The notes: a model not told the origin generated them from the sequence alone. Positions 8,659 to 30,606 are shown, numbered from the stretch's first letter. The stretch is 32,000 nt of DNA from Pyrobaculum aerophilum str. IM2 (GCF_000007225.1 NC_003364.1:960001-992000); one strand, 5' to 3'. Made by a program: numbers and translations.

Positions 8659-9543
8659 TTAATGTTGTCCTATAAACGTCACTTCGCTTCTTAACAGTTC
8701 AGAAATAGACAACTGCTCATATCTCCCCCTTTCTGACAAGTGTAAAACCACGTACTTGTTATTAATACTAGTTACCGCCATTTTTTCGCCCTTTAAGACT
8801 ATAACATCGCCAGGTTTGTAAGTCGCGATTCTCACAGAATACGTCATATGGTATATCTTCCTGCCGTCTTTTACGCCAACAACCTTAGCCGTCTCTGTTA
8901 CGACGCTAGGGAATTGTCTGTGTATGACGTAAGCCAAATGTCTTGCGAGATTTGCATTTGTTGTATATATATCTATTCCATTTTTCAAATCTTTTATATC
9001 ACTTATAAAACCTATTTTTTTATCTTTAAGTTTATAAAGTTCTTGTTCTATTATGAAAATAATTTTCTTTTTAACGTCATTCTCTATACCTCTAGGATAC
9101 CCTCTAATTTGTAACACAGCGACTTCCCTTCTGCTTAACATCTCTCTACACGAGTTACAAATATCGTAGACGTACTCAAACGTTAAGACGTAAGTAAACA
9201 ATCTCGGCTCAATAGAGGGGTGGGGAGAGCCTTTGACCACTACTCTAGCCGTAAGGCCATCATAACTCTGAGACGCCTCTATTCTCTCTATCGCCCCGCT
9301 AACTGACGCCTTGTCTGACAAGACCTTTGCCGCCAACTCCTCCACGCCTCCCCTCCCCTCTCTAATCCACCTCCCTCTTATAAATAAAGCGCCGCAGTAC
9401 CTACACCTCAAGACTCTGGTTTCCTTTACCTTTACCAGTGGGTGTCTCTCAACGTAACAATCTTCGCACATGCCCTCAATTAGCCTATCAACTAGGCGTC
9501 CGCAAAACGGGCAAGGAATTTTAGCCACGTCTCTACCGGCCAC
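8659..9543 (-). CDS. NMD3-family protein (ribosome-associated, archaeal homologue)
   Basis: 294 aa with an N-terminal cluster of CxxC pairs (CPFCG, CEDC, CRYCG, CNSC), as in the NMD3 N-domain. GTG start. Confidence 0.75.
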   Translation of the reverse strand: MAGRDVAKIPCPFCGRLVDRLIEGMCEDCYVERHPLVKVKETRVLRCRYCGALFIRGRWIREGRGGVEELAAKVLSDKASVSGAIERIEASQSYDGLTARVVVKGSPHPSIEPRLFTYVLTFEYVYDICNSCREMLSRREVAVLQIRGYPRGIENDVKKKIIFIIEQELYKLKDKKIGFISDIKDLKNGIDIYTTNANLARHLAYVIHRQFPSVVTETAKVVGVKDGRKIYHMTYSVRIATYKPGDVIVLKGEKMAVTSINNKYVVLHLSERGRYEQLSISELLRSEVTFIGQH

Positions 9544-9591
9544 CCTCTAAATATTTTTTTACTTCTAAAGCTATGGCGTATGATAGCGGCG
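9542..9591. repeat. Direct repeat A: relic copy of the last 17 codons of the C5-MTase gene
   Basis: 46/50 identical to 14307-14356. Read on the minus strand it encodes PLSYAIALEVKKYLEG, the same as the MTase C-terminus. Confidence 0.85.
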
Positions 9592-9596
9592 TCCTC

Positions 9597-12524
9597 TTAA
9601 TTACTATTGTCAGCGCCAGCGCCTTGTTTATCACTATCAAGTTTTCCTCTGCGCCACTGGTCTACGGCGTCTTTAAGCGCCTTAAAGCGGCACAGGGCGT
9701 CTAGCTGGTCCGCGAGGAGGAACACTCTGCCCCTCTTAGCCTTTCCGGTCAGCGCCTTTAACACGGCGGCTTCCACATCGTCTTTGACCGTGAGTGTTGC
9801 CATTTCAAAGTAATACGTGGTCGTTGTATTGCCTTTTTTCTTTTGTTGCTTTTTCCAGTACCACTCTATTTTGAACTGTTTCCTCTCTCCCCCAACCTCG
9901 TACTCCGCGATAATGCGCAGGCGGCAGTCCCTTCCAGCGCAGTGGCTCACCGGCTGGCCGTTTTCCACAAATTCATACCGCAGATCTACAACGCGGGCAA
10001 TTAAGTTGCCCCCCTCGTCGTATACCGCCAGCGGAAGCTCCGCCGCTCCCTCCTCCCTCGCCGGAGTCAGAACCTCAATTAGCTTTTTCGCTGCGTCATC
10101 GCCGTGTCTGCGCTTCAAAACGTCCTCCAACTCCCTGATGAACCGCTCCGCCTCCACGTTGCCGCCCAGCGCCATACGCTGAATTTCGCGGAGGCCGTCG
10201 TAAGTGATGTAGATTATGTACTGTCCGCTCCACTTCACCGCGAAGTGCTTTCCCTCCGCCAGCCCCGCCGCCTTCAAGGCGTTTACGATGGCGTCTTTGT
10301 GGTCTTTTTTAACGCGGATTTCGCGCCTTTTATCGTAAACAGCGTAGTGCTCGCCTTTCTTCAGCCCGCTCTGCGCCAAAGTCTCAACGGCCTTGGCGTA
10401 TGCTTCTTTTGTAACGCGGATTTCGTAACCGCCATGCTCTTTCACCGTGAAGTGTATGCCCTCCTTCAGACCCCTCGCCTTTAATGCGTTTAAGGCGGCG
10501 TTTTTAGATGCCTCGCTAGTCGGAGTATATCTCACTTGTATTATATCGCTATACTTGTCTCTCGTCTTGTAATTAACCGAGAACTCCACGTCGGCGAATT
10601 TAACGGTGTTGGGCCCAGTCTCAATCTCTTTCACCACCTGTTTATACCTATTCTCGCTGATCAGCCCCTTGTCTTTAAGCTCGTCCACAAAGCTCCTCAC
10701 CGCGTTCAGCCAGCCGTTGTGGCGGATTGACGCAATGCCGTCGGTGTAGAGCTTGACTTTCCATACCTTACTTACGCGCTTAACCTCTGCCTCGCCGCCG
10801 AGGGCCCTAATGATAGAGGCCAGCCGTTCGGCGTTTTCGCGGGAGCCGCCGAATTTGGCATAAAGCTCAGTGCCGGTCCAGTATACTGTTATGTGCGCCA
10901 CTTCCTCACCGTTCAACTTGAAGCGAATTATGGCCTTTGGCCACTGCCCGCTTGTGTCCAAAGGTCCTTTCTCCACGGCGATGTTTTTGTAGACGTAGTC
11001 CTCTGCCATTGTAACAACTTCCTCTAGCTTTTTGAAAAACATTTCGTTTCTCACGTCGTAACCCCAGTCAATGCCGAATTTCCTTTTAACCGCCTCGCGG
11101 GTAACGACTTTAAACGCGTCGGCGAATTCTGTCAGGGCATCCCTAAGCTCGTGCAACGCGGGTAGCGCCGGCGTTACAGCCTCCAGTAAGCCGTTCAGCT
11201 CGGCGCCTTTGAAGGCAATATGGTGCGCGCCTCTGCCCCTATACACTGAGCTTGGCTTAAGGCCAAGCTCCTTCAGAGCCCACAGCCAGAAAGCGGTGAA
11301 GTGGTCGCGGGTCATAATCGGACTTTCCACGTGTTCAGGGCCGCCGATGAAAAGCAGAATTTCGTCTCTAAACACAGTCCCATCGTACAACACAGCGAAA
11401 ATCACCGCAAGGGCCGCCTCCTCTCTAGACAGTTCACCCATCTTGCGCGCCTCTACGGCATATGCCAGCGGGAGGAGGACGCGGAGGTATTTGCCCAGCT
11501 TGTCTACCTCCATTACCACCTTTTTCCTCTCTTCGTCCTTTTTCTCCTTTGCCTCCTCTTCTAGCTGTTTCCACAGTGCTAACAGCTCATTAACGCGCTC
11601 CCAGAACTCGCCGGCCGCCGTCTCCAAGGCCTTCTTTAATTCATCATTCATTTTAACATCAGTTAGAGCCACCTTCAGATCAACGCCGCCTTCCGACTGT
11701 TTGTTAGGTGTCAATAGATTTTCAAACACGGCGCGGCTTACACTCAGCACCTCGCGCACCGCCTCAGTGTACTTGCCCTCAACGCGCCACATCGGCTTTA
11801 GCCCCTCCTCGGAGGGGTATACTCTTACGAGCCCAATTCCGCCCCCAGCGTCGAGCTTAATTTCGCGCTCAGCCAGCGCCCAGTAGGTAAATGTCTGCGA
11901 GAGGTAAGAGGAGTCGCCGAGGACGTACTCACGTCCGGGGTATAGGACGGCGTCTGTGGGCAGTGCGCCGATTGTAATGGCCCTAGCCGTTTTCTTCACT
12001 ATTTTTCTCGTCTTTTTCACCGCTTTTACTGCCCTCTCCCACTCCCCTCCGCCAAGCCCCTCCAGTAGTTTAGAGCCGGAGGAGGCGGCCGCCGCCAAAT
12101 TAGCAACTTCTTTAAACAGCTCTACCACCTCTCCCTCCGCCGAAAGCGGTATTAGCCACTTGCCAGCCTCCCATGGGACTTTGAGGAGCTCGTGGCCGTT
12201 TTCTACAAATGTGGCGTATACGCGCCTTTTGCCGTTTTCTGTCTTCTCCTCTATGCGTACTTCCACGCCCTGTCTGCCGGCCAGTATTTCTCTCATTGCG
12301 GGTTCTATCAGTAGAGTGGCAATGCGGAAGGCCAGTTTTCTGGTCTCTGACAGCTTCTCATCACCGCTGGCTGATCTAAACACCTTGTAGAAGACGAAGG
12401 GTGTATTCCTAACAGCTGACGCAATGCTGAGAGTGCCGGCTATCTGCTCACCTTTCCCCGCCAACGCCCTCTCCATGGAGACGCCGAATAGGCCGCCAGT
12501 TACAAGCGATAGCAAAGCGGTCAC
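9597..12524 (-). CDS. paREP2b-like large repeat-family protein (probably the downstream part of a frameshift-split gene)
   Basis: 975-aa ORF, paralogous to 19203-21128 over its C-terminal two thirds. The GTG start has no promoter, and the frame stays open 186 nt upstream. The family name is from my memory of the P. aerophilum annotation. Confidence 0.7.
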   Translation of the reverse strand: MTALLSLVTGGLFGVSMERALAGKGEQIAGTLSIASAVRNTPFVFYKVFRSASGDEKLSETRKLAFRIATLLIEPAMREILAGRQGVEVRIEEKTENGKRRVYATFVENGHELLKVPWEAGKWLIPLSAEGEVVELFKEVANLAAAASSGSKLLEGLGGGEWERAVKAVKKTRKIVKKTARAITIGALPTDAVLYPGREYVLGDSSYLSQTFTYWALAEREIKLDAGGGIGLVRVYPSEEGLKPMWRVEGKYTEAVREVLSVSRAVFENLLTPNKQSEGGVDLKVALTDVKMNDELKKALETAAGEFWERVNELLALWKQLEEEAKEKKDEERKKVVMEVDKLGKYLRVLLPLAYAVEARKMGELSREEAALAVIFAVLYDGTVFRDEILLFIGGPEHVESPIMTRDHFTAFWLWALKELGLKPSSVYRGRGAHHIAFKGAELNGLLEAVTPALPALHELRDALTEFADAFKVVTREAVKRKFGIDWGYDVRNEMFFKKLEEVVTMAEDYVYKNIAVEKGPLDTSGQWPKAIIRFKLNGEEVAHITVYWTGTELYAKFGGSRENAERLASIIRALGGEAEVKRVSKVWKVKLYTDGIASIRHNGWLNAVRSFVDELKDKGLISENRYKQVVKEIETGPNTVKFADVEFSVNYKTRDKYSDIIQVRYTPTSEASKNAALNALKARGLKEGIHFTVKEHGGYEIRVTKEAYAKAVETLAQSGLKKGEHYAVYDKRREIRVKKDHKDAIVNALKAAGLAEGKHFAVKWSGQYIIYITYDGLREIQRMALGGNVEAERFIRELEDVLKRRHGDDAAKKLIEVLTPAREEGAAELPLAVYDEGGNLIARVVDLRYEFVENGQPVSHCAGRDCRLRIIAEYEVGGERKQFKIEWYWKKQQKKKGNTTTTYYFEMATLTVKDDVEAAVLKALTGKAKRGRVFLLADQLDALCRFKALKDAVDQWRRGKLDSDKQGAGADNSN
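10988..11432. repeat. 445-bp tract identical to 20609-21053
   Basis: Base-by-base comparison at an offset of 9621 found no mismatch. The flanks drop to roughly 70-75% identity by hand alignment. Confidence 0.9.
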
Positions 12525-12651
12525 TGTCCTCTCTCCTCTAGTGGCGTCTATCTTGGGAAGATCGTCTGCGGCGGCCTCCGCAAGCCTTATTACGTTCTCC
12601 GTAGCCGCTTTCAGCCTTTCGGCAATTCCGCTGTAACCAGCTCCCTCCAGC

Positions 12652-13680
12652 CTATATGCAATTCTGTCCAGCTCGTTGGTAACCTCCCTTCGCCCTTTCC
12701 GCGGCTTCTACTAACACGTTGAGGTCACCCCATACGTCGCTAAGGGCAAATCTGCCGCTTTTCACAGCTCCTTCCAGCCTTTCAAGCGCCTTGTAGGACT
12801 TGTTCTTCAGCTCTACAAACTCCCTCAAGTGGTTTAATAGCGTGAAGGAGGCTATTAGATATGCTATTCTGTCATCGTCATCTTCAAAGACCTTTACGCT
12901 CTTGCCGGTCTCCCTAGCGCCAAGTACTGCCAGAGCCCAAAGCGCCGCGGGATCTCTTTGCTCATACCACGCCTTAGAGGCCTCCTCAAGGGCCTTTTTG
13001 TAGTTGGCGGCTTTCATCGCCTGCACGTAACTCGTCAAGCGCCTTAACTCTAACACTGCATTTTCTATTTGCTTCTCATCCATCGCGTGTCTCAGCGTTG
13101 AGAAGGCGCTTACCGCCTTCTCCACAACGCCTTTGTCAAGGCCTAGCTGGGCGGCGCGCTCTACAATCTCTTTCTCGCTTGCTGTTTTTGTCAATACCGC
13201 ATTCCCTACTTCCTTCCACTTATCGCCAACGCCAGCCGCCTTTGCCAGTCCCGCTATCGCCCCGGCGTTAAGCGCTATGTGGTTCTGCCAAAGCGTGTAG
13301 TCCAGTTGTTGCGCCACTACCCACGCCATCAGCCCGGCCGCCGCGGCGGCCATTATGAACCAATGCGCTCTTACGTAGTCAAGGACTCTCGCCACCGCCT
13401 CTACAAACAGCTCGTAAAGCCTCTGCAACGTTATTCTCGCCTTTTCGAATACCTCCCTCGCGGCTTCATACGCCGCCTCGGCGGCCCTTCTTACGTACTC
13501 CACTGCCCTCTCAAAGGCCCCCTCCCTCGCCAGTACTACCGCCGCGGCCGTCGCTGACACAACAGCCGTTGAGTACAGCCCGTCGTGTAGCGCCGCGTAT
13601 CCGGCCAGGCCGGCGGCGGCTACAACTGCCGGCTTGACTGCCTCCTCTACCGCCGCGATGCATCCCGGCGCCTCTTCCAC
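12652..13680 (-). CDS. Ala-rich protein with hydrophobic segments; probable upstream part of the split paREP2b-like gene
   Basis: 342-aa ORF with a GTG start, 14-23 nt from the AT box TTTTTAAAAA (13694-13703). Its last 57 nt overlap the open upstream extension of the 975-aa frame. Confidence 0.5.
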   Translation of the reverse strand: MEEAPGCIAAVEEAVKPAVVAAAGLAGYAALHDGLYSTAVVSATAAAVVLAREGAFERAVEYVRRAAEAAYEAAREVFEKARITLQRLYELFVEAVARVLDYVRAHWFIMAAAAAGLMAWVVAQQLDYTLWQNHIALNAGAIAGLAKAAGVGDKWKEVGNAVLTKTASEKEIVERAAQLGLDKGVVEKAVSAFSTLRHAMDEKQIENAVLELRRLTSYVQAMKAANYKKALEEASKAWYEQRDPAALWALAVLGARETGKSVKVFEDDDDRIAYLIASFTLLNHLREFVELKNKSYKALERLEGAVKSGRFALSDVWGDLNVLVEAAERAKGGYQRAGQNCI

Positions 13681-13780
13681 GTATTTCCGCGCCTTTTTAA
13701 AAACAACTTAAGCGAGATTTAAGGCAATATTTTAACGCATACGCGCCATAGATTACATAAAGAACGAGGAGCCCCGCGTA

Positions 13781-14215
13781 TTGGAGTGGAGGAAGAGGGA
13801 GGAGGAGCAGAGGAGGCTTGAGCTTAAGAGTCAGGTAATGGCGGCGTTAAAGGACTGGTATCGCAGATGTTTTAAGTGGCCCATCATGCCGGGGGAGGAG
13901 GGCAAGGTAGTGAGAAGGCTAGAGCTTTACTACGGAATGTGCGAAATGGCTAAGGCCGTAATCGCCGAATACGGCGAAAAATACGCCGAGCCTCTAATCA
14001 GCGAGTATGCCCTTAGGCGCGCATTTTGGTGGGAAGGGGAATGGAGGGGGAAGCCCATGTCGTGTTTCGTGACGGAAAAGAAGGCCGTTTGCAAGGTGGG
14101 CGACAAGATGGCCACATTTTACGTATTTGACACGCCCCACGGCGTGTACCTAAGGCCAGAAATCAAGCTTGTAGACGACTGGATTAAAGTGGCGTATAGG
14201 GGCGATGACAGTTAA
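13781..14215 (+). CDS. paREP2a-like small repeat-family protein (short form)
   Basis: 144 aa. ...EYALRRAFWWEGEWRGKPMSCFVTEKKAVCKVG...GVYLRPEIKLVDDWIKVAYRGDDS recurs at 21128-21384, 21371-22204 and, degraded, at 16594-17012. The start is uncertain: TTG 13781 or ATG 13838. Confidence 0.6.
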   Translation: MEWRKREEEQRRLELKSQVMAALKDWYRRCFKWPIMPGEEGKVVRRLELYYGMCEMAKAVIAEYGEKYAEPLISEYALRRAFWWEGEWRGKPMSCFVTEKKAVCKVGDKMATFYVFDTPHGVYLRPEIKLVDDWIKVAYRGDDS

Positions 14216-14306
14216 GGCGACGTGCGTAAAAGTCCTCCTCCCAGAGGTTTTTGAACTGCCGCGGAGGTTTGGAGTGTCATGGGACTGTTTAACGCTACCT
14301 TCAACG
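14205..14306 (+). pseudogene. Truncated start of a second paREP2a-like unit (N-domain fragment)
   Basis: MTVKATCVKVLLPEVFELPRRFGVSWDCLT matches the N-terminus of the 277-aa ORF at 21371 (MEAVSVKECIRVKLPEAFELPRRFGVSWGCLT). It is cut off at the repeat B boundary. Confidence 0.55.
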
Positions 14307-15245
14307 ACCCTCTAAATATTTTTTAACCTCTAGGGCTATGGCGTATGATAGCGGCGGCGGGACGCTCTCGCCAACCTGGTTATACTGAGACTCCTTTGAG
14401 CCGAGGAATATATATCCGTCGGGATAGCCCATTAGCCTGGCCTGCTCCCGCACTGTTAATACCCTGTGCTCCTCGGGGTGTATAAACCGCCTAGAGCCCA
14501 TTACCGTGGGCGCTATGTCGTCCCACATGAGGCGTATATAATTTTCATAAAAGCCGCCTGCCCCTCTATATCTCATTAAGGCCTCGCCGGGCTTCAGCTT
14601 GGAAATTCTTTCTTGTTTCTTCGGGCTTAAAGTCGTAGTCTCGTGGTTGGGAACTATGCCGCTGTCAGGAGGAGGTAAGTCGCGCAACGCCTCTCTTACT
14701 GTAACCCGCCTAGACTTAACAGGTCTAATTTCTATATTTGATACAAATACCCTCCTTCTTCTACTAGGCACTCCGTAGTCCTCGGCGTGTAGTATATTAA
14801 AATAAACCTCGTATCCAACTCTCTTAAACTCCCTTTTAATGTAAGTCCTGAGAGGCTCTTCGGCGAGGGCGGCCACGTTCTCCATTACAAAGACCTTGGG
14901 CCCTATTTCGCCCACTAGCCTTATGAACTCTAAAGTTAATTGGCCCGCGGGGTCTGTGTAAAGCCTATCTGCCGGGTCCTCCATTCTATTGGGATTTGCC
15001 GCGGTGAACGGCTCGCAGGGCGGGCTACCGATAATTACATCGACATCACCCGCATATTTTAACAAATCCCCATAGTCTATATATCTGATGTCTTCTTGTA
15101 TAATGATTGTGTATCTGTGATTGGCGCTGTAAGTCCTCACGGCATCTCTGTCAATATCTACAGCAACAGCAATTTTAAACCCCGCCATTCTAAAGCCCAG
15201 CCCAAACCCGCCCCCGCCTGCGAATAAATCCACTGCGCTGTACAC
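14301..15245 (-). CDS. DNA (cytosine-5)-methyltransferase
   Basis: 314 aa with C5-MTase motifs in canonical order: I DLFAGGGGFGLGF, IV GSPPCEPFT (catalytic Cys), VI VFVMENV, VIII PSRRRRVFV and X GESVPPPL. GTG start with ATTATAAAC about 25 nt upstream. Confidence 0.9.
   Translation of the reverse strand: MYSAVDLFAGGGGFGLGFRMAGFKIAVAVDIDRDAVRTYSANHRYTIIIQEDIRYIDYGDLLKYAGDVDVIIGSPPCEPFTAANPNRMEDPADRLYTDPAGQLTLEFIRLVGEIGPKVFVMENVAALAEEPLRTYIKREFKRVGYEVYFNILHAEDYGVPSRRRRVFVSNIEIRPVKSRRVTVREALRDLPPPDSGIVPNHETTTLSPKKQERISKLKPGEALMRYRGAGGFYENYIRLMWDDIAPTVMGSRRFIHPEEHRVLTVREQARLMGYPDGYIFLGSKESQYNQVGESVPPPLSYAIALEVKKYLEGR
14307..14356. repeat. Direct repeat B (functional 3' end of the C5-MTase gene)
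   Basis: 46/50 identical to 9542-9591. Confidence 0.85.
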
Positions 15246-15462
15246 CTTTTACAAAAACTACGCAGTTTATAATGTCACCTCCCAATTACAGCCTTCCGGC
15301 GCAACGCCCAGCCGCCCTGCCGTGTAGAGAGCTGGTTGATGCTCTCTAAAAACCAAGTGGCGTTGTCCCCAACCAGCCTCTCCCAAGATCGCCGTAAGAG
15401 CATAAAATTGTAGATAGTGGGGACGGGGCATGTTCCACATTATATATTCCCTAGTAGTGAGT

Positions 15463-15479
15463 AAATTTTATAAATATAT
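15463..15479 (+). promoter_or_regulatory. TATA-like box for the PD-(D/E)XK gene
   Basis: AAATTTTATAAATATAT, 15-31 nt upstream of the ATG at 15494. Confidence 0.45.
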
Positions 15480-15493
15480 GACCAGCCCCGTTC

Positions 15494-16084
15494 ATGGGCT
15501 TTGCCAAGAGGCTGAAGTATCGCCTTAGTGATTTAATAAAACTAGAGAAGCCAGACGCCTTGAGCTCCCGCTATGGAAAGGCCTTTGAAAAGGCAGTGCT
15601 GGCGCTGATAAAGGCCAAGGACTCTGTAGCCGCTTTACGTACTTTTATTGAAAACTACGGCGAGCCGCACACCGGCGCCTTTAGTAAACTAATAAAACTA
15701 ATGCCCTGGGCGAAAAGAGTCGTAGAAATAGAGCCCGCGCCTCCCGTGTTTTTCCAACTAGACGGCGTCACTATAACAGCTCAAGCCGATTTCATTGTGA
15801 AATATTCAGATGGGAAGAATGAGCTAGTTGAGCTAAAGTCTCATATTCTGAAGAGGGGTGAGTGGAAAATAAAAGCTGAGTGGTCGCTCGCCACTAAAAT
15901 AATGCGCATGCTCTATAGAAAAGCGGGTTATGACTACCCGCTACGCCTAATTTATTTTGTGGAACGGGAAGACGGCGTCGTCACAGAAGAGGAGGTGTTT
16001 ATATACCCCAAAGACGAGAAAGACGACGAAACTCTCCTCAACGTCCTCCGCGAGAGGCTTAAAAAGGCTATTACAGGCAGGTAA
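15494..16084 (+). CDS. PD-(D/E)XK-type nuclease (candidate restriction endonuclease partner of the MTase)
   Basis: 196 aa. GKAFEKAV (helix with Glu), then ...TAQADFIV... and ...NELVELKSH... give D-x(n)-E-x-K spacing. It lacks the Cys cluster of Cas4. Divergent from the MTase across a 248-bp spacer. Confidence 0.55.
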   Translation: MGFAKRLKYRLSDLIKLEKPDALSSRYGKAFEKAVLALIKAKDSVAALRTFIENYGEPHTGAFSKLIKLMPWAKRVVEIEPAPPVFFQLDGVTITAQADFIVKYSDGKNELVELKSHILKRGEWKIKAEWSLATKIMRMLYRKAGYDYPLRLIYFVEREDGVVTEEEVFIYPKDEKDDETLLNVLRERLKKAITGR

Positions 16085-16364
16085 ACCTCTCTTTAGCTAA
16101 TGCGAATGCTTGCTTTATAATCGACGTTGCGACGTCTAGTTTATCTAAGTGGCGTGGTTGAATAACTGCGTTTTCATCGCCAAGCATAAACTCTATACTA
16201 CACTCTTCATCTGACCAGGAAAAGACTATGAAAACAAAGAAATCCTCACGGAGCTGGATCTGTCCAAGCGCCTCATACTGTCTCCACTCCACTGTGAAGG
16301 CCTCTATCTCCTTGTCTATCCTCTCCTCAAGCTCTCTAAAAAATTGTTCCACTCTCTGGCGCAT
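16071..16364 (-). CDS. Hypothetical acidic protein
   Basis: 97-aa ORF with an AT box (TTTAAATTTATTTA) about 25 nt upstream. Convergent with the nuclease gene, overlapping it by 14 nt. Confidence 0.4.
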   Translation of the reverse strand: MRQRVEQFFRELEERIDKEIEAFTVEWRQYEALGQIQLREDFFVFIVFSWSDEECSIEFMLGDENAVIQPRHLDKLDVATSIIKQAFALAKERFTCL

Positions 16365-16407
16365 GTATCTGGCTTGATCTCTCTTTAAATTTATTTATCG
16401 TTTATAC

Positions 16408-16560
16408 CAGCGGGTTTCACCCCCTCCACTTGTCTATGGCGTCTTTCAGCGCCTTAAACCTGCGCAGGGCGTTCAGCTCGTCGGCTAAGAGATCCACTTG
16501 GACCTCTTCGCCTTCACCGTCAGCGCTTTCAACACGGTTGCCTCCACCCCGTCTTTGGCC
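16408..16560 (-). pseudogene. paREP2b-like C-terminal fragment
   Basis: The minus strand reads ...ATVLKALTVKAKRSKWISLADELNALRRFKALKDAIDKWRG*. This matches the C-termini of both large genes (e.g. AAVLKALTGKAKRGRVFLLADQLDALCRFKALKDAVDQWRRG in the 975-aa ORF). Confidence 0.65.
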
Positions 16561-16593
16561 TTTGAAGAGATCGCCTACAGAGGCCATTAAGAG

Positions 16594-17012
16594 CGAGAGG
16601 GAGTGGCGCGAGCTGAGGGATCAAGTATACCGCGCCGTGGCGGAGTGGCATAGGCAGTGTCTCGGATACTAACCGTGGTCTGAGGTGGAGGTTGTGAATC
16701 GGCATGAGGAGTACGCGGCGATGTGCCAGCTGTACCGCCTTGTCAAGGAGGAGCTGGGGGATAAGGCGTCGCTGTACGCCTCTGACTTCTCCCTCAGGTG
16801 CGTTTTTTAGTGGGAGGGGGGAGTGGCTGGGGCGTCCGCGTCGTGTCTCATAGCGGCATATAACGCCTTATGCCGCGTGGGGAGCGCCAAAATGGAATTT
16901 CGCGCTTATTATGTGAAAAACGGCGTATATCTAGAGCCGAAAATACTCCTGTACAGAGACAGAGTAAAGCGGCGCATAGGGGAGGTGGGGGCAGTTTGGA
17001 GGCAAGAAGCCG
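16594..17012 (+). pseudogene. paREP2a-like remnant with in-frame stops and frameshift
   Basis: EREWRELRDQVYRAVAEWHRQC..*..EEYAAMCQLY...SLRCVF*WEGG, then in another frame ...SCLIAAYNALCRVGSAKMEFRAYYVKNGVYLEPKILLY. It is collinear with the 13781-14215 protein. Confidence 0.65.
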
Positions 17013-17063
17013 CCGCTACAACTCACGAACTTGATTTTTTAAAGTTTTAATTCCTAACCTCAA

Positions 17064-18611
17064 GTGCCTGTGATAGACGTCGCAAAAAGCGACTTGGAGA
17101 GACTCACAGGATTAAAATACGAGGAAATCGCTAAGCTCTTTGAGTATATCAAAGGGGAAATAGAGAGCGACTCAGGCGAGAGGCTTAGAATTGAGGTGAC
17201 CCACGACAGGCCAGATCATTTCTCGGCGGAGGGACTGGCCAAGACCCTCAAGGGAATTGCCGAAATAGAGGTGGGCCTCCCCCGGATTTCGCTGGGGCGC
17301 TCTTCAATAAGGCTAGTGGCGGAGAGCATTACTGAAAGGCCTTATATTGCCATGGCCGTTGTAAGAAATGTTAGGCTCGACGAGGAGGCAATTAAGCAAA
17401 TGATACAGCTACAGGAAAAGCTACACGAGACTTATGGGAGGGGGAGGCGGAAAATAGCCATTGGCTTTTACGACGTTTCAAAAATAAAGCCTCCCATATA
17501 CTACCGGAGGATTTCCCAAGAGGATGAGTACATACCGCTGGGATTTCAGAAGCCCGTCAAAGTCAGGGAGATGTACGAGCTCACAGAACAGGGGAGGAGG
17601 TACAGCGGCCTAATTAATAGGGAAAATCCGCCTGCCCTAGTGGACGCCTCGGGGCAAATAATGGTCGTGATCCCAGTCTTAGGCTCTGAGTGTTGTAAAA
17701 TCACCGAGGCCACTAGAGACGTCTTAATTGACGTCACTGGGACAGATCACCGCGCGGTGGCCAACGCGCTCTCAATTCTCATATATTCCCTTCTAGAGCG
17801 CAGCGGCTCAAAGGAGGTGGAAATTGTAGAGGGGGGGACGGGCTACTCCCACGAATACGTGAAAATTTACGTCGACGAGAGAGCAGTCAGCGAGTTTTTA
17901 GGCGTTAAAATAGCCCACGAGGATTTTATTAAATACATCAAAAAGGCGCGTTTTGACTACCAGGAGGGAGCTGTTATTATTCCGCCTTACAGGATTAACG
18001 TCTTGTCGTGGGTAGATGTGGCTGAAGACGTCGCTATTGTGATGGGATATAACCAAATGCCTAGAGAGGTGCCGGAAATCCCGTCAGCTGGAAGACGGCA
18101 TAGAACAGAGGTAATTACTCTGGAGGTGCGCAAGTCTATGCTGTCCATGGGCTTTACCGAGTTGAATAACTACGTGCTTACAGACGAGGCTGTGGCCGAG
18201 GTGTGTAGCCCCGCCCGCGTCGCCAACCCCATCTCTGAGTTGTATACAACAATTAGATGTTCTATAATCACGCAATTAATCTCGGCGGCTTCGGCGCTGA
18301 AGAGGAGGGAGACGAAAATATTTGAAGTTGGAGAGGTAGTAAGGGAGGGGAGAACCGTTAGGGCGCTGGCGTTTCTCATCAGTCGAGACGGCGCCACGCT
18401 TACAGACGGGCTCTCTGTCGTGAAGAGCCTATGTAAACGCTTAGGATTAAAGTGTGAATTCTTCCCAGCGGAAGCCAAGTGGGCCCTTCCGAATAGAATG
18501 GCTGAAGTGAGAGGCGAGATAACAGGCTATATTGCCGAAGTTAACCCCGACGTGTTAACAGCCCTAAAACACGCGGTGCCCACCGTCGTCGCCGAACTGT
18601 ACATAGGCTAA
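17064..18611 (+). CDS. pheT: Phenylalanine--tRNA ligase, beta subunit (archaeal type)
   Basis: 515 aa. The start MPVIDVAKSDLERLTG is typical of archaeal PheT (B3_4/B5 layout). GTG start, AT box at 17036-17053. Confidence 0.9.
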   Translation: MPVIDVAKSDLERLTGLKYEEIAKLFEYIKGEIESDSGERLRIEVTHDRPDHFSAEGLAKTLKGIAEIEVGLPRISLGRSSIRLVAESITERPYIAMAVVRNVRLDEEAIKQMIQLQEKLHETYGRGRRKIAIGFYDVSKIKPPIYYRRISQEDEYIPLGFQKPVKVREMYELTEQGRRYSGLINRENPPALVDASGQIMVVIPVLGSECCKITEATRDVLIDVTGTDHRAVANALSILIYSLLERSGSKEVEIVEGGTGYSHEYVKIYVDERAVSEFLGVKIAHEDFIKYIKKARFDYQEGAVIIPPYRINVLSWVDVAEDVAIVMGYNQMPREVPEIPSAGRRHRTEVITLEVRKSMLSMGFTELNNYVLTDEAVAEVCSPARVANPISELYTTIRCSIITQLISAASALKRRETKIFEVGEVVREGRTVRALAFLISRDGATLTDGLSVVKSLCKRLGLKCEFFPAEAKWALPNRMAEVRGEITGYIAEVNPDVLTALKHAVPTVVAELYIG

Positions 18612-18638
18612 ATCTTAAATAGGACTAATACACTACAC

Positions 18639-19001
18639 TTGATGACAGACGAAATAGACTCCCTTCTCAGGAAAAAGGCATTGGAGCTCGCCAAGATGAG
18701 AATCCAAGAGAGCGGGCCAAAGCAAAAGGCCTTATCCGGTGATGAGGCGATCCAAATTGTTAGAAAAATTGTAAAGGGGGAAAGGGCCAGTGAAATAATT
18801 GACAACGCCCTATCACTGTATAGTCAACAGGCGATTGCCTTGTTCAAGAAGCTAGCCGAGCTCCACCTCCAAGGCGTAATTAAAGAGCTCGCAGATTATG
18901 AACTTTACCAGATGTTATTAAGACTCGGCATGAGAGTGCCCGTGAAGACTGAAATAAAAATTGTGAGACACGGCAGGGAGTACAAACTGGGAGAGTCCTA
19001 G
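18639..19001 (+). CDS. PDCD5/TFAR19-like dsDNA-binding protein
   Basis: 120 aa. SLLRKKALELAKMR... and ...LAELHLQGVIKE.LADYELYQMLLRLG...EIKIVR follow the COG2118 pattern as I remember it. Confidence 0.5.
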   Translation: MMTDEIDSLLRKKALELAKMRIQESGPKQKALSGDEAIQIVRKIVKGERASEIIDNALSLYSQQAIALFKKLAELHLQGVIKELADYELYQMLLRLGMRVPVKTEIKIVRHGREYKLGES

Positions 19002-19008
19002 CTCAGAT
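18989..19008. repeat. 20-bp direct repeat, left copy (3' end of the PDCD5-like gene)
   Basis: GGGAGAGTCCTAGCTCAGAT versus GGGAGAGTCTTAACTCAGAT at 22321-22340, 18/20 identical. Confidence 0.75.
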
Positions 19009-19202
19009 TTAGTGTGAAAAACAACGCATAGAGGAGATAGAGGTGGTTAAGGCGACGTGTAAAAAGCGCCTAAGACCTAGGGTTGAGGATTTCTAGAGTC
19101 CCGCCTCCAACGGCCCACTCCCCATCGCTACGTCTCTCGAGCTTAATGCCGTGAGACATAACATTCCATCGTAGAAGTGGAGGAATCAAAACTTTCTACG
19201 TT

Positions 19203-21128
19203 CTAATTGTCGCTCCTCTGTCCCTGTCCTTGCGAACTAGCCGGTTTTCCCTCTCTCCACTTGTCAATGGCGTCTTTTAAGGCCTTAAAGCGGCGCAAGG
19301 CGTCTAGCTGGTCGGCGTAGAGGTATACTCTGCCTCTCTTCGCCTCTTTTCCTGTCAGCGTTTCCAACACGGCCGCCTCTACTTCGTCTTTTACCGTTGG
19401 CCGTGCTATTTCGTAATAGTACGTGATAATCGCGTCGCCCTTCTTTTCCCGCTTCTCTGCCCAATACCACTCCATCTTGAACTGTCTCCTCTCGCCGCTG
19501 GGCAATTCGTATTCTACGATGATGCGCAGGCGGCAGTCCTCACCGGCGCATTGGCTCACTGGCTGGCTCGCCAGCCGCTTGCTCCTCTGTTTTCCTTTCA
19601 CGAATTCACACTTCAAATCTACAACGCGGGCGATTAAGTTGCCCCTATCGTCGTAAACTGCCAGTGGCAGATCTACAGTCCCCTCTTCCCTCGCCGGCCT
19701 CAGAACCTCTGTCAGCTTTTTCGCCGCGCCATCGCCGTGTCTACGCCTCAAAACATCCTCTAGCTCCCTGATGAACTTTTCAGCCTCCATATCGCCGTTT
19801 GACGCCATGCGTTGAATTTCGCGAAGGCCGTCGTAAGTGATGTAGACTACGTAGTATCTGCTACTCTTGACGGTGAAGTCTCTGCCCTCTTTCAGCCCCG
19901 CCGCCTTTAGGGCGTTTACAATAACGTCTTTTTGTTCCGCCTTGACGCTAATTATGCGCCATTTGCCGTAAACGGAGTAGTGTTTGCCCTCTTCCAGCCC
20001 GCTATGTACAAGGGCATCAATAGCCTTTACGAAAGCCTCTTTCGTAACACGAATTTCGTAACGTTCAGTGCCCTCTGTAGTAACCGTGAAGTGTACTCCC
20101 TCCCTCAGACCCCTTGCCATTAAGGCGTTTACGGCGGCGTTTTTAGCGTTCTCGTTGCGCGGATGATATTTTACCATTATTTTGTTTTCATAATTAACCG
20201 TGAATTCAACGCCGGCGAATTTAACGGTGTTGGGGCCGGTCTCTAGGTCCCTCACTAACTGTTCGTACTTATCTTTGTCGATTAACCCCTTGCCGTAAAG
20301 CTCGTCCACAAAGCCCCTCACCGCGTTTAGCCAGCCGTCATGGCGAATTGCTATGATGTCGTCAGTAGTGAGCCAAGTTCTCCATACCTTACCTATGCGT
20401 TTAACCTCCGCCTTACCTCCAAGCGCTCTGATAATAGAGGCCAACCTTTCGGCGTTTTCGTGAGAGCCGCCGAACTGGGCTTGTAGCTCCCTGCCAGTCC
20501 AGTACACGGTTATGTACGCCACCTCCTCCCCTCCCAACTTAAAGTGTATTACGGCCTTTGGTTGCTTACCGCTTGTATCTAACGGCCACCTCTCCACTGT
20601 GACGTTTCTGTAGACGTAGTCCTCTGCCATTGTAACAACTTCCTCTAGCTTTTTGAAAAACATTTCGTTTCTCACGTCGTAACCCCAGTCAATGCCGAAT
20701 TTCCTTTTAACCGCCTCGCGGGTAACGACTTTAAACGCGTCGGCGAATTCTGTCAGGGCATCCCTAAGCTCGTGCAACGCGGGTAGCGCCGGCGTTACAG
20801 CCTCCAGTAAGCCGTTCAGCTCGGCGCCTTTGAAGGCAATATGGTGCGCGCCTCTGCCCCTATACACTGAGCTTGGCTTAAGGCCAAGCTCCTTCAGAGC
20901 CCACAGCCAGAAAGCGGTGAAGTGGTCGCGGGTCATAATCGGACTTTCCACGTGTTCAGGGCCGCCGATGAAAAGCAGAATTTCGTCTCTAAACACAGTC
21001 CCATCGTACAACACAGCGAAAATCACCGCAAGGGCCGCCTCCTCTCTAGACAGCTCTCCCCTTCTGTACGCCTCCACGGCGTACGCCAGAGGCAAGAGAA
21101 CGTGGAAATATTTAGGCAAAAATAGCAT
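19203..21128 (-). CDS. paREP2b-like protein, N-terminally truncated copy (possibly not expressed)
   Basis: 641-aa ORF collinear with residues ~345-975 of the 975-aa ORF. Its ATG is created at the deletion junction, and no AT box lies upstream. Confidence 0.6.
   Translation of the reverse strand: MLFLPKYFHVLLPLAYAVEAYRRGELSREEAALAVIFAVLYDGTVFRDEILLFIGGPEHVESPIMTRDHFTAFWLWALKELGLKPSSVYRGRGAHHIAFKGAELNGLLEAVTPALPALHELRDALTEFADAFKVVTREAVKRKFGIDWGYDVRNEMFFKKLEEVVTMAEDYVYRNVTVERWPLDTSGKQPKAVIHFKLGGEEVAYITVYWTGRELQAQFGGSHENAERLASIIRALGGKAEVKRIGKVWRTWLTTDDIIAIRHDGWLNAVRGFVDELYGKGLIDKDKYEQLVRDLETGPNTVKFAGVEFTVNYENKIMVKYHPRNENAKNAAVNALMARGLREGVHFTVTTEGTERYEIRVTKEAFVKAIDALVHSGLEEGKHYSVYGKWRIISVKAEQKDVIVNALKAAGLKEGRDFTVKSSRYYVVYITYDGLREIQRMASNGDMEAEKFIRELEDVLRRRHGDGAAKKLTEVLRPAREEGTVDLPLAVYDDRGNLIARVVDLKCEFVKGKQRSKRLASQPVSQCAGEDCRLRIIVEYELPSGERRQFKMEWYWAEKREKKGDAIITYYYEIARPTVKDEVEAAVLETLTGKEAKRGRVYLYADQLDALRRFKALKDAIDKWREGKPASSQGQGQRSDN
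20609..21053. repeat. 445-bp tract identical to 10988-11432
   Basis: See the partner entry at 10988-11432. Confidence 0.9.
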
Positions 21129-21384
21129 TGGCTGAGTACGGCATTAAGCCAGACAGCCCGATAATCAGCGAATACGCCCTTAGGCGCGCATTTTGGTGGA
21201 ATGGGGAATGGAGGGGAAGGCCAATGTCCTGTTTCGTGACCGACTTGAGGGCGTTTTGTAAAGTGGGCAAAAAATGGCAGCGTTTTACGTATTCGACACG
21301 CCCCATGGCGTATACCTCAGGCCGGAAATCAAGCTAATAGACGAGTGGATTAAGGTGGCCCACAGGGGAGATGGAGGCGGTTAG
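21128..21384 (+). pseudogene. paREP2a-like fragment, 5'-truncated and frameshifted
   Basis: AEYGIKPDSPIISEYALRRAFWWNGEWRGRPMSCFVTDLRAFCKVGKK, then the frame is lost at the A6 run (21269-21274). With A7 it would read MAAFYVFDTPHGVYLRPEIKLIDEWIKVAHRGDGGG*. Confidence 0.7.
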
Positions 21385-22204
21385 CGTTAAGGAGTGTATA
21401 CGCGTTAAACTGCCAGAGGCCTTTGAGCTACCGAGGAGGTTTGGAGTGTCCTGGGGGTGCCTAACACAGGGCGCCTTTAGGGGTGTGGACGCCGTTGTGG
21501 CTGAGGGGAAGGGGAGGGGCGTTTATTTCCGCTACGTGCTACCCTACGACGCAAACGCCAAACGCTATATGGCGGAGTACGGGCAGAGGGAAAGGAGGGA
21601 GGGCTATGGCATATCGCCAACGCTGGCGGAGGCCCTATACGAGCTGGCTGAGAGGCATGAGGTAGAAGTCGTGATAGAGAAAACACAATACAAAACGTAT
21701 TACTACGCCGTTGTAGACGGCGTGAAGATAGACGGCAGACTTTGCTATAGGGAAAGTCTCAGGGACTGTGTCAATAAGGTAGTGAGGTGGGTTAAAGAGG
21801 AGAAAAAGTGGAGAGAATCATTGCGACTACTGAGGATTAGGGAGGAAGTGCTGAACGCAGTGGCGGAGTGGTATTTCCGCTGTTTTGGAGAAACTGCAAA
21901 CCAGCTGAAAGTGGCCAAGAGGCTAGAGGAATACCACACGCTGTGTCAAATGCGTAGCGCCGCGAAGAGGGAATTCGGAGTGGCGCCAACGGAGAGGGCC
22001 CTAAGAAGGGCATTTTGGTGGGACGGGGAGTGGGGAGGGAGGGCGTTGTCGTGTTTCGTGACGGAAAGGGAGGCGGTGTGCAGATGGGGAGGCGCGAAGT
22101 GGAAATTCACAGTGAGGGCGGGAACAGACGGCGTATATATTAAGCCTGAGAGCCCACTATACCAAGAGTGGATTAAGGCGGCACATAGGGGTAACGACAG
22201 TTAA
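21371..22204 (+). CDS. paREP2a-like protein, long form (extra ~130-aa N-domain)
   Basis: 277 aa. The C-terminal half matches 13781-14215 (ALRRAFWWDGEWGGRALSCFVTEREAVC...GVYIKPESPLYQEWIKAAHRGNDS). The N-terminal domain matches the fragment at 14205-14306. Confidence 0.65.
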   Translation: MEAVSVKECIRVKLPEAFELPRRFGVSWGCLTQGAFRGVDAVVAEGKGRGVYFRYVLPYDANAKRYMAEYGQRERREGYGISPTLAEALYELAERHEVEVVIEKTQYKTYYYAVVDGVKIDGRLCYRESLRDCVNKVVRWVKEEKKWRESLRLLRIREEVLNAVAEWYFRCFGETANQLKVAKRLEEYHTLCQMRSAAKREFGVAPTERALRRAFWWDGEWGGRALSCFVTEREAVCRWGGAKWKFTVRAGTDGVYIKPESPLYQEWIKAAHRGNDS

Positions 22205-22320
22205 GGCGACGAGAGAAGAGCCGAGTGATGAGAGGGAGTGGAAGAGGCTGTGAGAACGCCTCCACAGACCCTGTTACTCTAATTATGCGGACTCTCTTGC
22301 CCAGCTCTGCGAAGTAGTTA

Positions 22321-22340
22321 GGGAGAGTCTTAACTCAGAT
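22321..22340. repeat. 20-bp direct repeat, right copy (3' end of the Zn-ribbon gene)
   Basis: 18/20 identical to 18989-19008. Confidence 0.75.
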
Positions 22341-22581
22341 ACAGGGCATATAGCTCTTCCATCAGACCGCGCCAGTTGAATAGCCTAACAGAGTAGTTGA
22401 CATATCTCCTTGCCAATTCTCTCTTCTCCCTCTTTACATAACGCAAACAGCGCTTACAGCCAAACCAGACGTATGTGTTATCCTCAACGATCTCCATAGC
22501 ACTGCCACAGAGGGGGCATCTACTGGCCACCTCAACAGCCAGGAGATCCATACACACTATCATCCCGCCATTTAAAGCCAC
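22330..22581 (-). CDS. Small zinc-ribbon protein
   Basis: 83 aa with CPLCG...x17...CKRC. The start is GTG 22581 or ATG 22563. Confidence 0.5.
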   Translation of the reverse strand: MALNGGMIVCMDLLAVEVASRCPLCGSAMEIVEDNTYVWFGCKRCLRYVKREKRELARRYVNYSVRLFNWRGLMEELYALYLS

Positions 22582-23421: not shown

Positions 23422-23861
23422 ATGTCCACGACGTATTGGACAAGCCAGTAATCCTCCACCTTTTTGATCTCCATCATGTGATAAGTCATCGCCTTCACGA
23501 TAAGCCCCGTAAAGCCGTGTTTATTAATGTCGTACTTCTCCCCGTAGAGTAGAGCCCTTATTGCGTATCCATTCCCCTTCTCTAGTTTTACTTCAATCCT
23601 CCTGCTTAGGGCGAACTTCTCGGCGTCGAATAAGTACAACAGCTCGTCTATCCAGCGGAATAAGAGCCCCTCTAAATCCTCATATTCTACGGCGACCTCT
23701 CTGCTCTCTTTTGGCTCAACGCGGCTACTGTAGTAAGTCAAATCGGCCAGCGCCAAGGCTGCGTTTTTAAACGCCTCCTCTAGCGTGCATCCATACGCCT
23801 GGATTAAGACGTCTGCTGTATGCTCGCCGTATTTATAATCGCCAGGCTTGCCGCAAGGCAC
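23418..23861 (-). CDS. Archease
   Basis: 147 aa with the N-terminal archease signature [30 protein letters not shown]. Confidence 0.85.
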
Positions 23862-23906
23862 AATTTGTGAGAAAATCTGTTTTAAATCATTGACCTTGAC
23901 GATTAT

Positions 23907-30479: not shown

Positions 30480-30606
30480 ATGGGCATTTTAATATTAATG
30501 AATAATTTACATTGACTTTAGATAATTGCGTAAGTAGTTTTCACATAAGTCGAATCAGATAGGATGCCGACAGTCATACCTCCTCCGGGTTCTAATCATC
30601 ACAAAA

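Follow-up and report, generated by a model that had tools for sequence, protein, structure and literature searches.

How does a pair of genes with no recognized recombinase come to be inserted between housekeeping genes of an archaeon, and how does it leave again? This question is raised by a 32,000-nucleotide stretch of the Pyrobaculum aerophilum str. IM2 genome (NC_003364.1:960001-992000), here called the window, whose positions serve as coordinates throughout. The window holds three copies of a cassette built from the paREP2b and paREP2a genes. We think it somewhat probable that the paREP2 cassette is a selfish mobile segment, composed of PaRep2b and one or two PaRep2a genes diverging from a shared spacer, that carries its target along and is lost and regained through homology.

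An earlier note, made from the sequence of the window alone, had described three related copies of one two-gene cassette and had named the families paREP2a and paREP2b; self-BLAST and Pfam agree with it on both counts. Positions 9633-11492 align with 19236-21113 (79.6% over 1,898 bp), 13995-14283 with 21162-21455 (77%), and 9654-9789 with 16426-16560 (78%). The 975-aa open reading frame (ORF) of cassette 1 (A975, 9597-12524, minus strand) and the 641-aa ORF of cassette 3 (C641) match the Pfam model PaRep2b (PF07775) over its full length, with E values of 6e-278 and 2e-270 and scores of 923 and 898 bits (cut-off, 20.4). A975 is 100% identical to P0121, annotated as paREP2b of P. aerophilum IM2. 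The small genes a144 and c277 match PaRep2a (PF07903) at full length (217 and 194 bits; cut-off, 25). The G+C content of the cassettes is 54-56%, as opposed to 37-51% for their flanks. In the P. oguniense genome paper (2012), PaREP2b was regarded as a putative transposon, and paREP2 was tied to 4 of the 16 largest strain-specific regions (PMC3558965). The searchable literature, with the 2002 genome paper set aside, yielded no description of insertion sites, target duplications, excision, or mechanism for paREP2.

Insertions and duplicated targets

Contigs covering the same region were fetched by exact-protein look-ups with the pheT, zinc-ribbon, and OMP-decarboxylase proteins of the window; scans of a genome collection, by pheT and by an alignment of PaRep2b, had no hits, P. 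aerophilum apparently being missing or masked there. The corresponding regions of two sister species were fetched through pheT homologs: P. ferrireducens (L007; pheT 73% identical) and a Pyrobaculum species known from metagenome-assembled genomes (MAGs) (L008/L009; 71%). All three IM2 copies were confirmed as insertions. The NMD3-like and methyltransferase genes, which flank cassette 1 in IM2, are adjacent in P. ferrireducens and overlap by 8 bp in the MAG species. In both species the 101-aa gene and pheT are 45 bp apart, with no cassette 2, and the 120-aa and zinc-ribbon genes overlap by 4 bp, with no cassette 3. The earlier note had placed every copy at a boundary between housekeeping genes, and the neighbors indeed adjoin or overlap at the empty sites. 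Such sites, which it proposed to seek in sister Pyrobaculum genomes, were found in 3 of 3 cases, and no cassette shared with identical junctions was seen. Its cassette boundaries, 9592-14306 and 19009-22320, are identical to the insertion ends set by the empty sites.

When the left and right flanks in the window were aligned to the single site of a sister species, the two alignments overlapped by the length of the repeat. Thus, the repeats are true target duplications. Clear duplications measure 50 bp at cassette 1, 20 bp at cassette 3, and about 48 bp at a fourth site, occupied in another strain. In each of these cases the duplicated stretch is the part common to both neighbors, and both genes stay intact: at site 3 it holds the two stop codons of the convergent, overlapping genes, and at site 1 it combines the 3'-terminal methyltransferase codons with the TATA-like box of the NMD3-like gene. 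The earlier note had seen no terminal inverted repeats; it overlooked the direct target repeats at cassettes 1 and 3, and these long duplications are the main clue to the mechanism.

The two repeat copies at cassette 1 are identical at 46 of 50 positions. Their four differences fall inside 10 bp, with blocks of identity of 18 and 22 bp on either side. All four are synonymous third-position changes in four consecutive methyltransferase codons. At cassette 3, the left copy, GGGAGAGTCCTAGCTCAGAT, and the right copy, GGGAGAGTCTTAACTCAGAT, agree at 18 of 20 positions in IM2, a match reached in 0 of 300 shuffles. Two assemblies about 97.5% identical to IM2 (L020 and L022) have copies identical at 20 of 20 positions. 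A 34-bp extension of homology between the right end of cassette 1 and P. ferrireducens was rejected as, most likely, an alignment overrun, the stretch being PaRep2a coding sequence.

Presence and absence among strains

Six contigs from six data sets lack 9592-14306 exactly and retain one copy of the 50-bp repeat, while both of their flanks are 99.8-99.9% identical to the window. The remaining copy is the left variant in four of these assemblies and the right variant in two; both empty forms encode the same protein end. Among the occupied junctions recovered, every left one carries the L variant and both right ones carry the R variant. Outside the mismatch cluster, the cassette-free contigs differ from the window by singleton single-nucleotide polymorphisms only, with no shared haplotype. 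Loss in two forms fits recombination between the repeat copies at different points. The simplest reading of these sequences would be that a progenitor with cassette 1 lost it at least two times by repeat-repeat recombination, with crossovers in the 18-bp and the 22-bp block. Because both empty-site forms exist, a recombinase with a fixed crossover point is unlikely, as it would yield one form. The IM2 methyltransferase is altered in its last residues alone, ending in YLEGR where the empty form ends in YLEGGR.

Could these differences be an artifact of assembly, with the 50-bp repeat collapsed? The empty sites come from metagenome or MAG assemblies, and paREP2 repeats do break contigs, every pheT contig stopping inside cassette 3. 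Collapse is nevertheless unlikely: the repeat copies share no exact match longer than 22 bp, and the k127 and Logan assemblies were built with longer k-mers than that. Moreover, six independent data sets gave clean single-copy junctions in two sequence forms. We find this explanation hardly credible.

One assembly (L010/L039; GCA_036754085) has flanks 100% identical to IM2 around a mosaic cassette 1, whose identity to the window ranges from 76 to 100% in 250-bp bins (window 9750-13019). This suggests either gene conversion among paREP2b paralogs or a chimeric MAG assembly.

A fourth insertion was found in a metagenome (ERZ936123) between the archease and OMP-decarboxylase genes, where IM2 has 45 bp. 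It comprises a gene for a 1,266-aa PaRep2b, one PaRep2a gene, and the start of a second, long-form PaRep2a gene. Here the right repeat copy is 100% native (junction contigs L015 and L025). In the left copy the first 14 bp are native and the remainder is diverged by about 20%; the archease encoded there starts with VTCG, like that of P. ferrireducens, whereas IM2 has VPCG. Beyond the repeat there are 0 mismatches over 2.6 kb on the left and 0.7 kb on the right. Judged from these junctions, the foreign patch would fit a single crossover with a circle that bore one target copy of foreign origin. Confinement of foreign sequence to one repeat copy argues against ordinary allelic replacement or homing from a diverged donor, which should leave donor sequence in the flanking genes.

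At a fifth site, PaRep2b lies upstream of the citrate synthase gene in L012 and is absent from IM2 and L013; no diverged target patch could be shown at the single L012 junction. A metagenome scan returned only five loci and gave no new complete junction pair. Counting the three sites filled in IM2 and the two filled in other strains, five paREP2 sites thus fall within 21 kb of conserved housekeeping genes (window 9542-30590), which looks like an unusually high density. The region also seems to be an insertion hotspot in several species: in P. ferrireducens (L007 12142-13007), two unrelated small genes (81 and 217 aa) lie between pheT and the 118-aa gene, a gap of about 30 bp in P. aerophilum and the MAG species.

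Cassette 3 tells how truncated copies arise. L020 and L022 share its site and its 20-bp duplication but have another internal deletion. There the large gene, near the equivalent of 20901, is joined to a homolog of cassette-1 positions 13418-13533, and the small-gene fragment is lacking. Since a different deletion occurs inside the same insertion, the middle was lost only once the cassette had been inserted; later deletion of this kind, in place, produced the truncated copies. The earlier note had taken cassettes 2 and 3 for non-autonomous derivatives that moved after losing their middle. This view fails on two counts, the termini being unshared and the deletion in L020 and L022 differing within one insertion; a derivative resembling miniature inverted-repeat transposable elements (MITEs) was rejected on the same grounds. 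Other details of the description held in part or in full. The large gene of cassette 3, proposed to begin near residue 345, aligns with residues 343-973 of A975, and the cassette does keep both outer parts, with two small-gene pieces, a fragment and the complete c277, in place of one. Cassette 2, said to retain the last ~45 codons of the large gene and a decayed small gene, has about 37-45 of these codons and a frameshifted PaRep2a.

Three further observations concern cassette 3. Between IM2 and L020, the synonymous divergence (dS) is 0.08 for PaRep2b and 0.81 for PaRep2a (L020/L022 3378-4298 versus window 21371-22204), and the small gene seems, from these sequences, to have been swapped for another paralog in one lineage. 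L003, an assembly otherwise about 99.5% identical to the window, has 13 substitutions within 66 bp of the PaRep2b 3' end (19242-19307), which look like a short conversion tract from another copy. Finally, the left end of cassette 3 (19030-19066) carries a relic of a PaRep2a 3' end (GGTTAAGGCGACGTGTAAAAAG), and the right end (22281-22320) carries a possible relic of a PaRep2b 3' end. Cassette 3 may derive from a head-to-tail array or concatemer, as a piece slightly longer than one unit.

An alternative to mobility of the cassette itself is that immobile cassettes are swapped by homologous recombination in their conserved flanks, like the minimal mobile elements of Neisseria, and are lost by deletion. 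The cassettes do lie between conserved genes, the populations recombine (the mosaic in L010, 76-100% identical within identical flanks), and the substitution cluster of L003 could be read in the same way. Flank swapping, however, creates no target duplication; foreign sequence stops at the repeat boundary on both sides and does not extend into the flanking genes; and the sister species show single-copy targets with overlapping genes. We consider flank swapping quite improbable as an account of these sites.

Table 1. Positions of paREP2 features and their neighbors in the window
Feature	Position	Strand	Remarks
Cassette 1	9592-14306		4,715-bp insertion; missing in six near-identical assemblies and both sister species
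Left copy of 50-bp direct repeat (L variant)	9542-9591		Holds TATA-like box upstream of NMD3-like gene
Right copy of 50-bp direct repeat (R variant)	14307-14356		Encodes last 17 codons of the methyltransferase minus the final codon
Large PaRep2b gene, ~1,350 codons	9597-13680	-	Split in IM2 into 975-aa and 342-aa ORFs
Spacer between divergent genes	13681-13780		A+T-rich TATA-like boxes, read directly from the sequence
PaRep2a gene a144	13781-14215	+	N-terminally truncated long form; homology to long forms from near 13745
First 31 codons of second long-form PaRep2a gene	14202-14294	+	Cut by right end of insertion; tblastn match to c277 residues 3-32, 71% identical
C5 DNA methyltransferase gene	14301-15245	-	Right neighbor of cassette 1
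Cassette 2, decayed relic	16404-17050		45 bp at this site in sister species
PaRep2b 3' end in cassette 2	~16411-16564	-	~37-45 C-terminal codons kept, last ~150 bp of large gene
Frameshifted PaRep2a in cassette 2	~16586-16969	+	a144 residues 14-136 match at 16610-16969
Cassette 3	19009-22320		3,312-bp insertion; in all P. aerophilum assemblies seen, missing in both sister species
Left copy of 20-bp target duplication	18989-19008		Spans stop codon of 120-aa gene (PDCD5-like in the earlier note)
Right copy of 20-bp target duplication	22321-22340		Spans stop codon of 83-aa zinc-ribbon gene
PaRep2b gene without N-terminal part, 641 aa (C641)	19203-21128	-	Equivalent to A975 residues 343-975
PaRep2a fragment	21128-21337	+	Equivalent to a144 residues 57-139; adjoins truncated large gene at internal deletion junction
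Complete long-form PaRep2a c277, 277 aa	21371-22204	+	Pfam PaRep2a match
83-aa zinc-ribbon gene	22330-22581	-	Right neighbor of cassette 3
Site 4, unoccupied in IM2	23844-23891		~48-bp stretch duplicated around PaRep2 insertion in ERZ936123
Site 5, unoccupied in IM2	30580-30592		PaRep2b insertion in L012; one junction recovered

Ends, proteins, and the search for a recombinase

The inserted DNA begins and ends at different points of the gene pair. Cassette 1 runs from 5 bp past the PaRep2b stop codon to codon 32 of the second PaRep2a gene, and the site-4 element from 35 bp past the PaRep2b stop codon to about codon 54 of its second PaRep2a gene. At one end of cassette 3, about 195 bp precede the PaRep2b stop codon, a stretch that includes the relic of the PaRep2a 3' end. 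That the outermost sequences of the copies differ had already been noticed, and no end sequences common to the copies were found. Such ragged ends suggest that the inserted DNA consists of pieces of a longer paREP2 array.

The large gene of cassette 1 had been described as two ORFs of 975 and 342 aa. Both parts do lie on the minus strand, as pieces of one ORF of about 1,350 codons that is frameshifted by a single extra G in the G-run near 12686-12690; the 1,348-aa homolog P0123 is colinear with both. The frame at this run is also intact in the homologs P0123 and P0126 from other strains. Possible explanations of the extra G are a recent inactivating mutation, an error in sequencing, and homopolymer instability in P. 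aerophilum. The small plus-strand gene expected across a ~100-bp spacer with AT boxes is present, as is the spacer, but with a correction concerning a144. The small gene is usually a PaRep2a long form of 277-300 aa; c277 is complete, whereas a144 is a long form without its N-terminal domain.

The ratio of nonsynonymous to synonymous substitution rates (dN/dS) among paralogs is 0.25-0.36 for PaRep2b, with C641 versus A975 at 0.25, and 0.15-0.22 for PaRep2a, while that of pheT between species is 0.04-0.08. By these ratios, the cassette genes are coding genes under moderate constraint. In two other cassettes (L011 4700-5254 and 12050-12075; L030 3576-4130), the PaRep2b stop codon is followed by a conserved start, ATGAACA(A/G)C, which in one case continues as a 184-aa ORF with no family match; this start does not occur in the copies of the window. 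The 184-aa ORF may be a third cassette gene.

A profile search among 1.84 billion representative proteins returned only 85 relatives at E<=0.001, most of them matching over a domain of about 200 residues alone (profile positions 530-730). Full-length PaRep2b contains, toward its N terminus, two or three hydrophobic, possibly membrane-spanning segments. Residues 668-775 of A975 (~10200-10520) form three tandem units of about 34 residues, each a helix, GL-x-EG, and a beta hairpin. Glu688 and Glu757 are nearly invariant in these units, which also appear at the DNA level as direct repeats D5, D6, and D10. The weak profile matches that recur for PaRep2b are SPOR and YscJ/FliF, which are generic alpha-beta-beta repeats. 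The AlphaFold model of PaRep2a (predicted local distance difference test score [pLDDT], 71; residues 80-277 confident) had no match in PDB, and that of PaRep2b (pLDDT, 71) had no significant match in a viral structure library.

The best PDB matches of the PaRep2b model are LAGLIDADG homing endonucleases, among them the archaeal I-Tsp061I and I-DmoI, with a few more such enzymes in the viral library. PaRep2b might accordingly be a homing-type endonuclease that cuts empty sites, with the cassette copied from an occupied allele by double-strand-break repair. Presence and absence of the cassette at identical sites, donor-type sequence beside a junction, and the three conserved PaRep2b helices that end in GL-x-EG before a strand would all suit such an enzyme. 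The fold likeness, however, does not reach an E value of 0.001 (best, 8.5e-3; root-mean-square deviation, >15 A), and no LAGLIDADG motif or profile was matched when 28 members were run against Pfam at permissive settings or when PDB sequences were searched by profile. Hydrophobic N-terminal segments also speak against it, as does the process itself: homing makes no target duplication, and the co-conversion expected past the repeat is not seen. We judge homing to be very unlikely.

Pfam, NCBIfam, PADLOC, and PHROGs scans of the cassette proteins returned nothing besides the PaRep2 families, and in particular no transposase family (Pfam, NCBIfam, and PHROGs). No integrase or integrase fragment, whole or split, was found in or beside any copy, no inverted terminal repeats bracket any cassette, and joining the ends of cassette 1 into a hypothetical circle restores no ORF. 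Neither Rfam nor a tRNA scan gave a hit in the window, so that a tRNA target plays no part. The earlier note had likewise seen no integrase, transposase, or inverted terminal repeats and had concluded that any mobility must be of a non-standard kind. Insertions that are present or absent between strains with 99.9%-identical flanks, in company with no recognized recombinase, bear this out.

Archaeal integrative elements of the SSV and pNOB8 types typically leave direct repeats, 20-50 bp long, at the end of a gene, and one of the two copies differs from the native site. The paREP2 repeats resemble such attachment (att) sites in length, position, and the divergence of one copy, and the foreign patch at site 4 is limited to one repeat copy. 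The cassettes could then be remnants or satellites of larger integrated viruses or plasmids, with the repeats as attL and attR and the integrase elsewhere or lost. This is unlikely in our view. Besides the missing integrase and the unrestored circular junction, searches of viral contigs, phage records, and plasmid records gave no PaRep2b, the three targets have unrelated sequences, and the copies have ragged ends. Moreover, the two classes of empty sites need crossovers on both sides of the 10-bp mismatch cluster.

The C5 cytosine methyltransferase gene beside cassette 1 keeps its position between housekeeping genes in both sister species, and no restriction-enzyme partner was noticed near it.

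A proposed target-carrying cassette and its relation to known elements

On the reading of paREP2 as a target-carrying mobile segment, loss would release a circle with one copy of the target, and this copy would act as a portable attachment site. After transfer to another cell, one crossover with the matching chromosomal site would restore the cassette at the same locus. Recombination would be driven by homology, most likely through host enzymes, with no fixed-crossover integrase. The first insertion may have occurred when a broken piece of a longer paREP2 array was captured at a staggered break, a stalled fork, or a template switch, as the ragged, non-conserved ends and the variable duplication length suggest. 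Selection may keep those insertions whose duplication spares both neighbors.

Several points weigh against this account. No circular form or excision junction was observed, and the circle is deduced from two loci only. One of these, the site-4 element, is pieced together from two contigs of one metagenome (L015 and L025) and is not a single molecule. The other, cassette 1, fits the same crossover scheme, though either repeat variant could be the native one; an old insertion followed by repeated loss alone would explain that locus. Several of the occupied cassette-1 contigs are 100% identical to IM2 and may come from the same strain. At cassette 2, the candidate repeat (16373-16396 and 17030-17052) is A+T-rich promoter sequence and no better than chance in the shuffle test, and the cassettes of L011 and L030 were checked with no flanking repeat found. 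Nor does the scheme say why it is these two genes, and not other DNA, that are inserted. Finally, PaRep2b or PaRep2a might yet be a self-encoded enzyme; the models have no recognizable fold match, and PaRep2b gives a weak LAGLIDADG-like signal.

In its behavior, paREP2 most resembles integrative elements with a tyrosine integrase, such as the SSV and pNOB8 types, yet it fails their integrase, fixed-crossover, and target tests. Common to both are flanking direct repeats of tens of base pairs at a gene end, one of them brought by the element, and reversible excision that restores the target, which for paREP2 is proposed from sequence. The differences are that paREP2 has no integrase gene, no tRNA target, unrelated target sequences, ragged ends, and a variable crossover. 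We rate it as an integrative cassette without a recombinase of its own.

The minimal mobile elements of Neisseria are alternative gene cassettes exchanged by flanking homology. Like them, paREP2 cassettes lie between housekeeping genes, carry no mobility genes, and probably depend on host recombination. Unlike them, they appear to use as homology just the 20- to 50-bp duplicated target and not the flanking genes, and their insertion duplicates the target. With free-standing LAGLIDADG homing genes they share the form of a selfish gene between conserved genes, present or absent at identical sites, and a weak fold likeness; they differ in the lack of the motif, the target duplication, the lack of co-conversion beyond the repeat, and a product of >1,300 aa with hydrophobic N-terminal segments. 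Casposons have a Cas1 integrase, inverted terminal repeats, and a 14- to 15-bp duplication. Casposons, insertion sequences, and MITEs are all, like paREP2, inserted DNA with a target-site duplication. In paREP2, by contrast, there is no Cas1, transposase, or inverted terminal repeat, truncated copies lack the ends of the long copy, and the duplication varies from 20 to 50 bp, whereas that of the other elements is fixed at 2-15 bp.

There is a real, if smaller, chance that paREP2 represents an undescribed kind of archaeal mobile element. Its insertion would create a long target duplication of variable length (20-50 bp), which the element would reuse as its attachment site when it leaves precisely in circular form and enters naive genomes again. 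Either no dedicated recombinase would take part, or PaRep2b and PaRep2a would act as an unrecognized machine for recombination or DNA transfer.

The paREP families, a visible part of Pyrobaculum genomes, have carried no annotation other than repeats since 2002. The model proposed here for paREP2 is testable: it describes insertion between essential genes without harm, a precise exit, and a target that is apparently carried along. It would also account for much of the variation in genome size between strains. If the element has no enzyme of its own, short duplicated targets plus host recombination would suffice to spread DNA horizontally among hyperthermophilic archaea; if the enzyme is PaRep2b or PaRep2a, it would belong to a new class of recombination proteins. 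In practical terms, paREP2 cassettes are natural markers of gene flow among Pyrobaculum populations.

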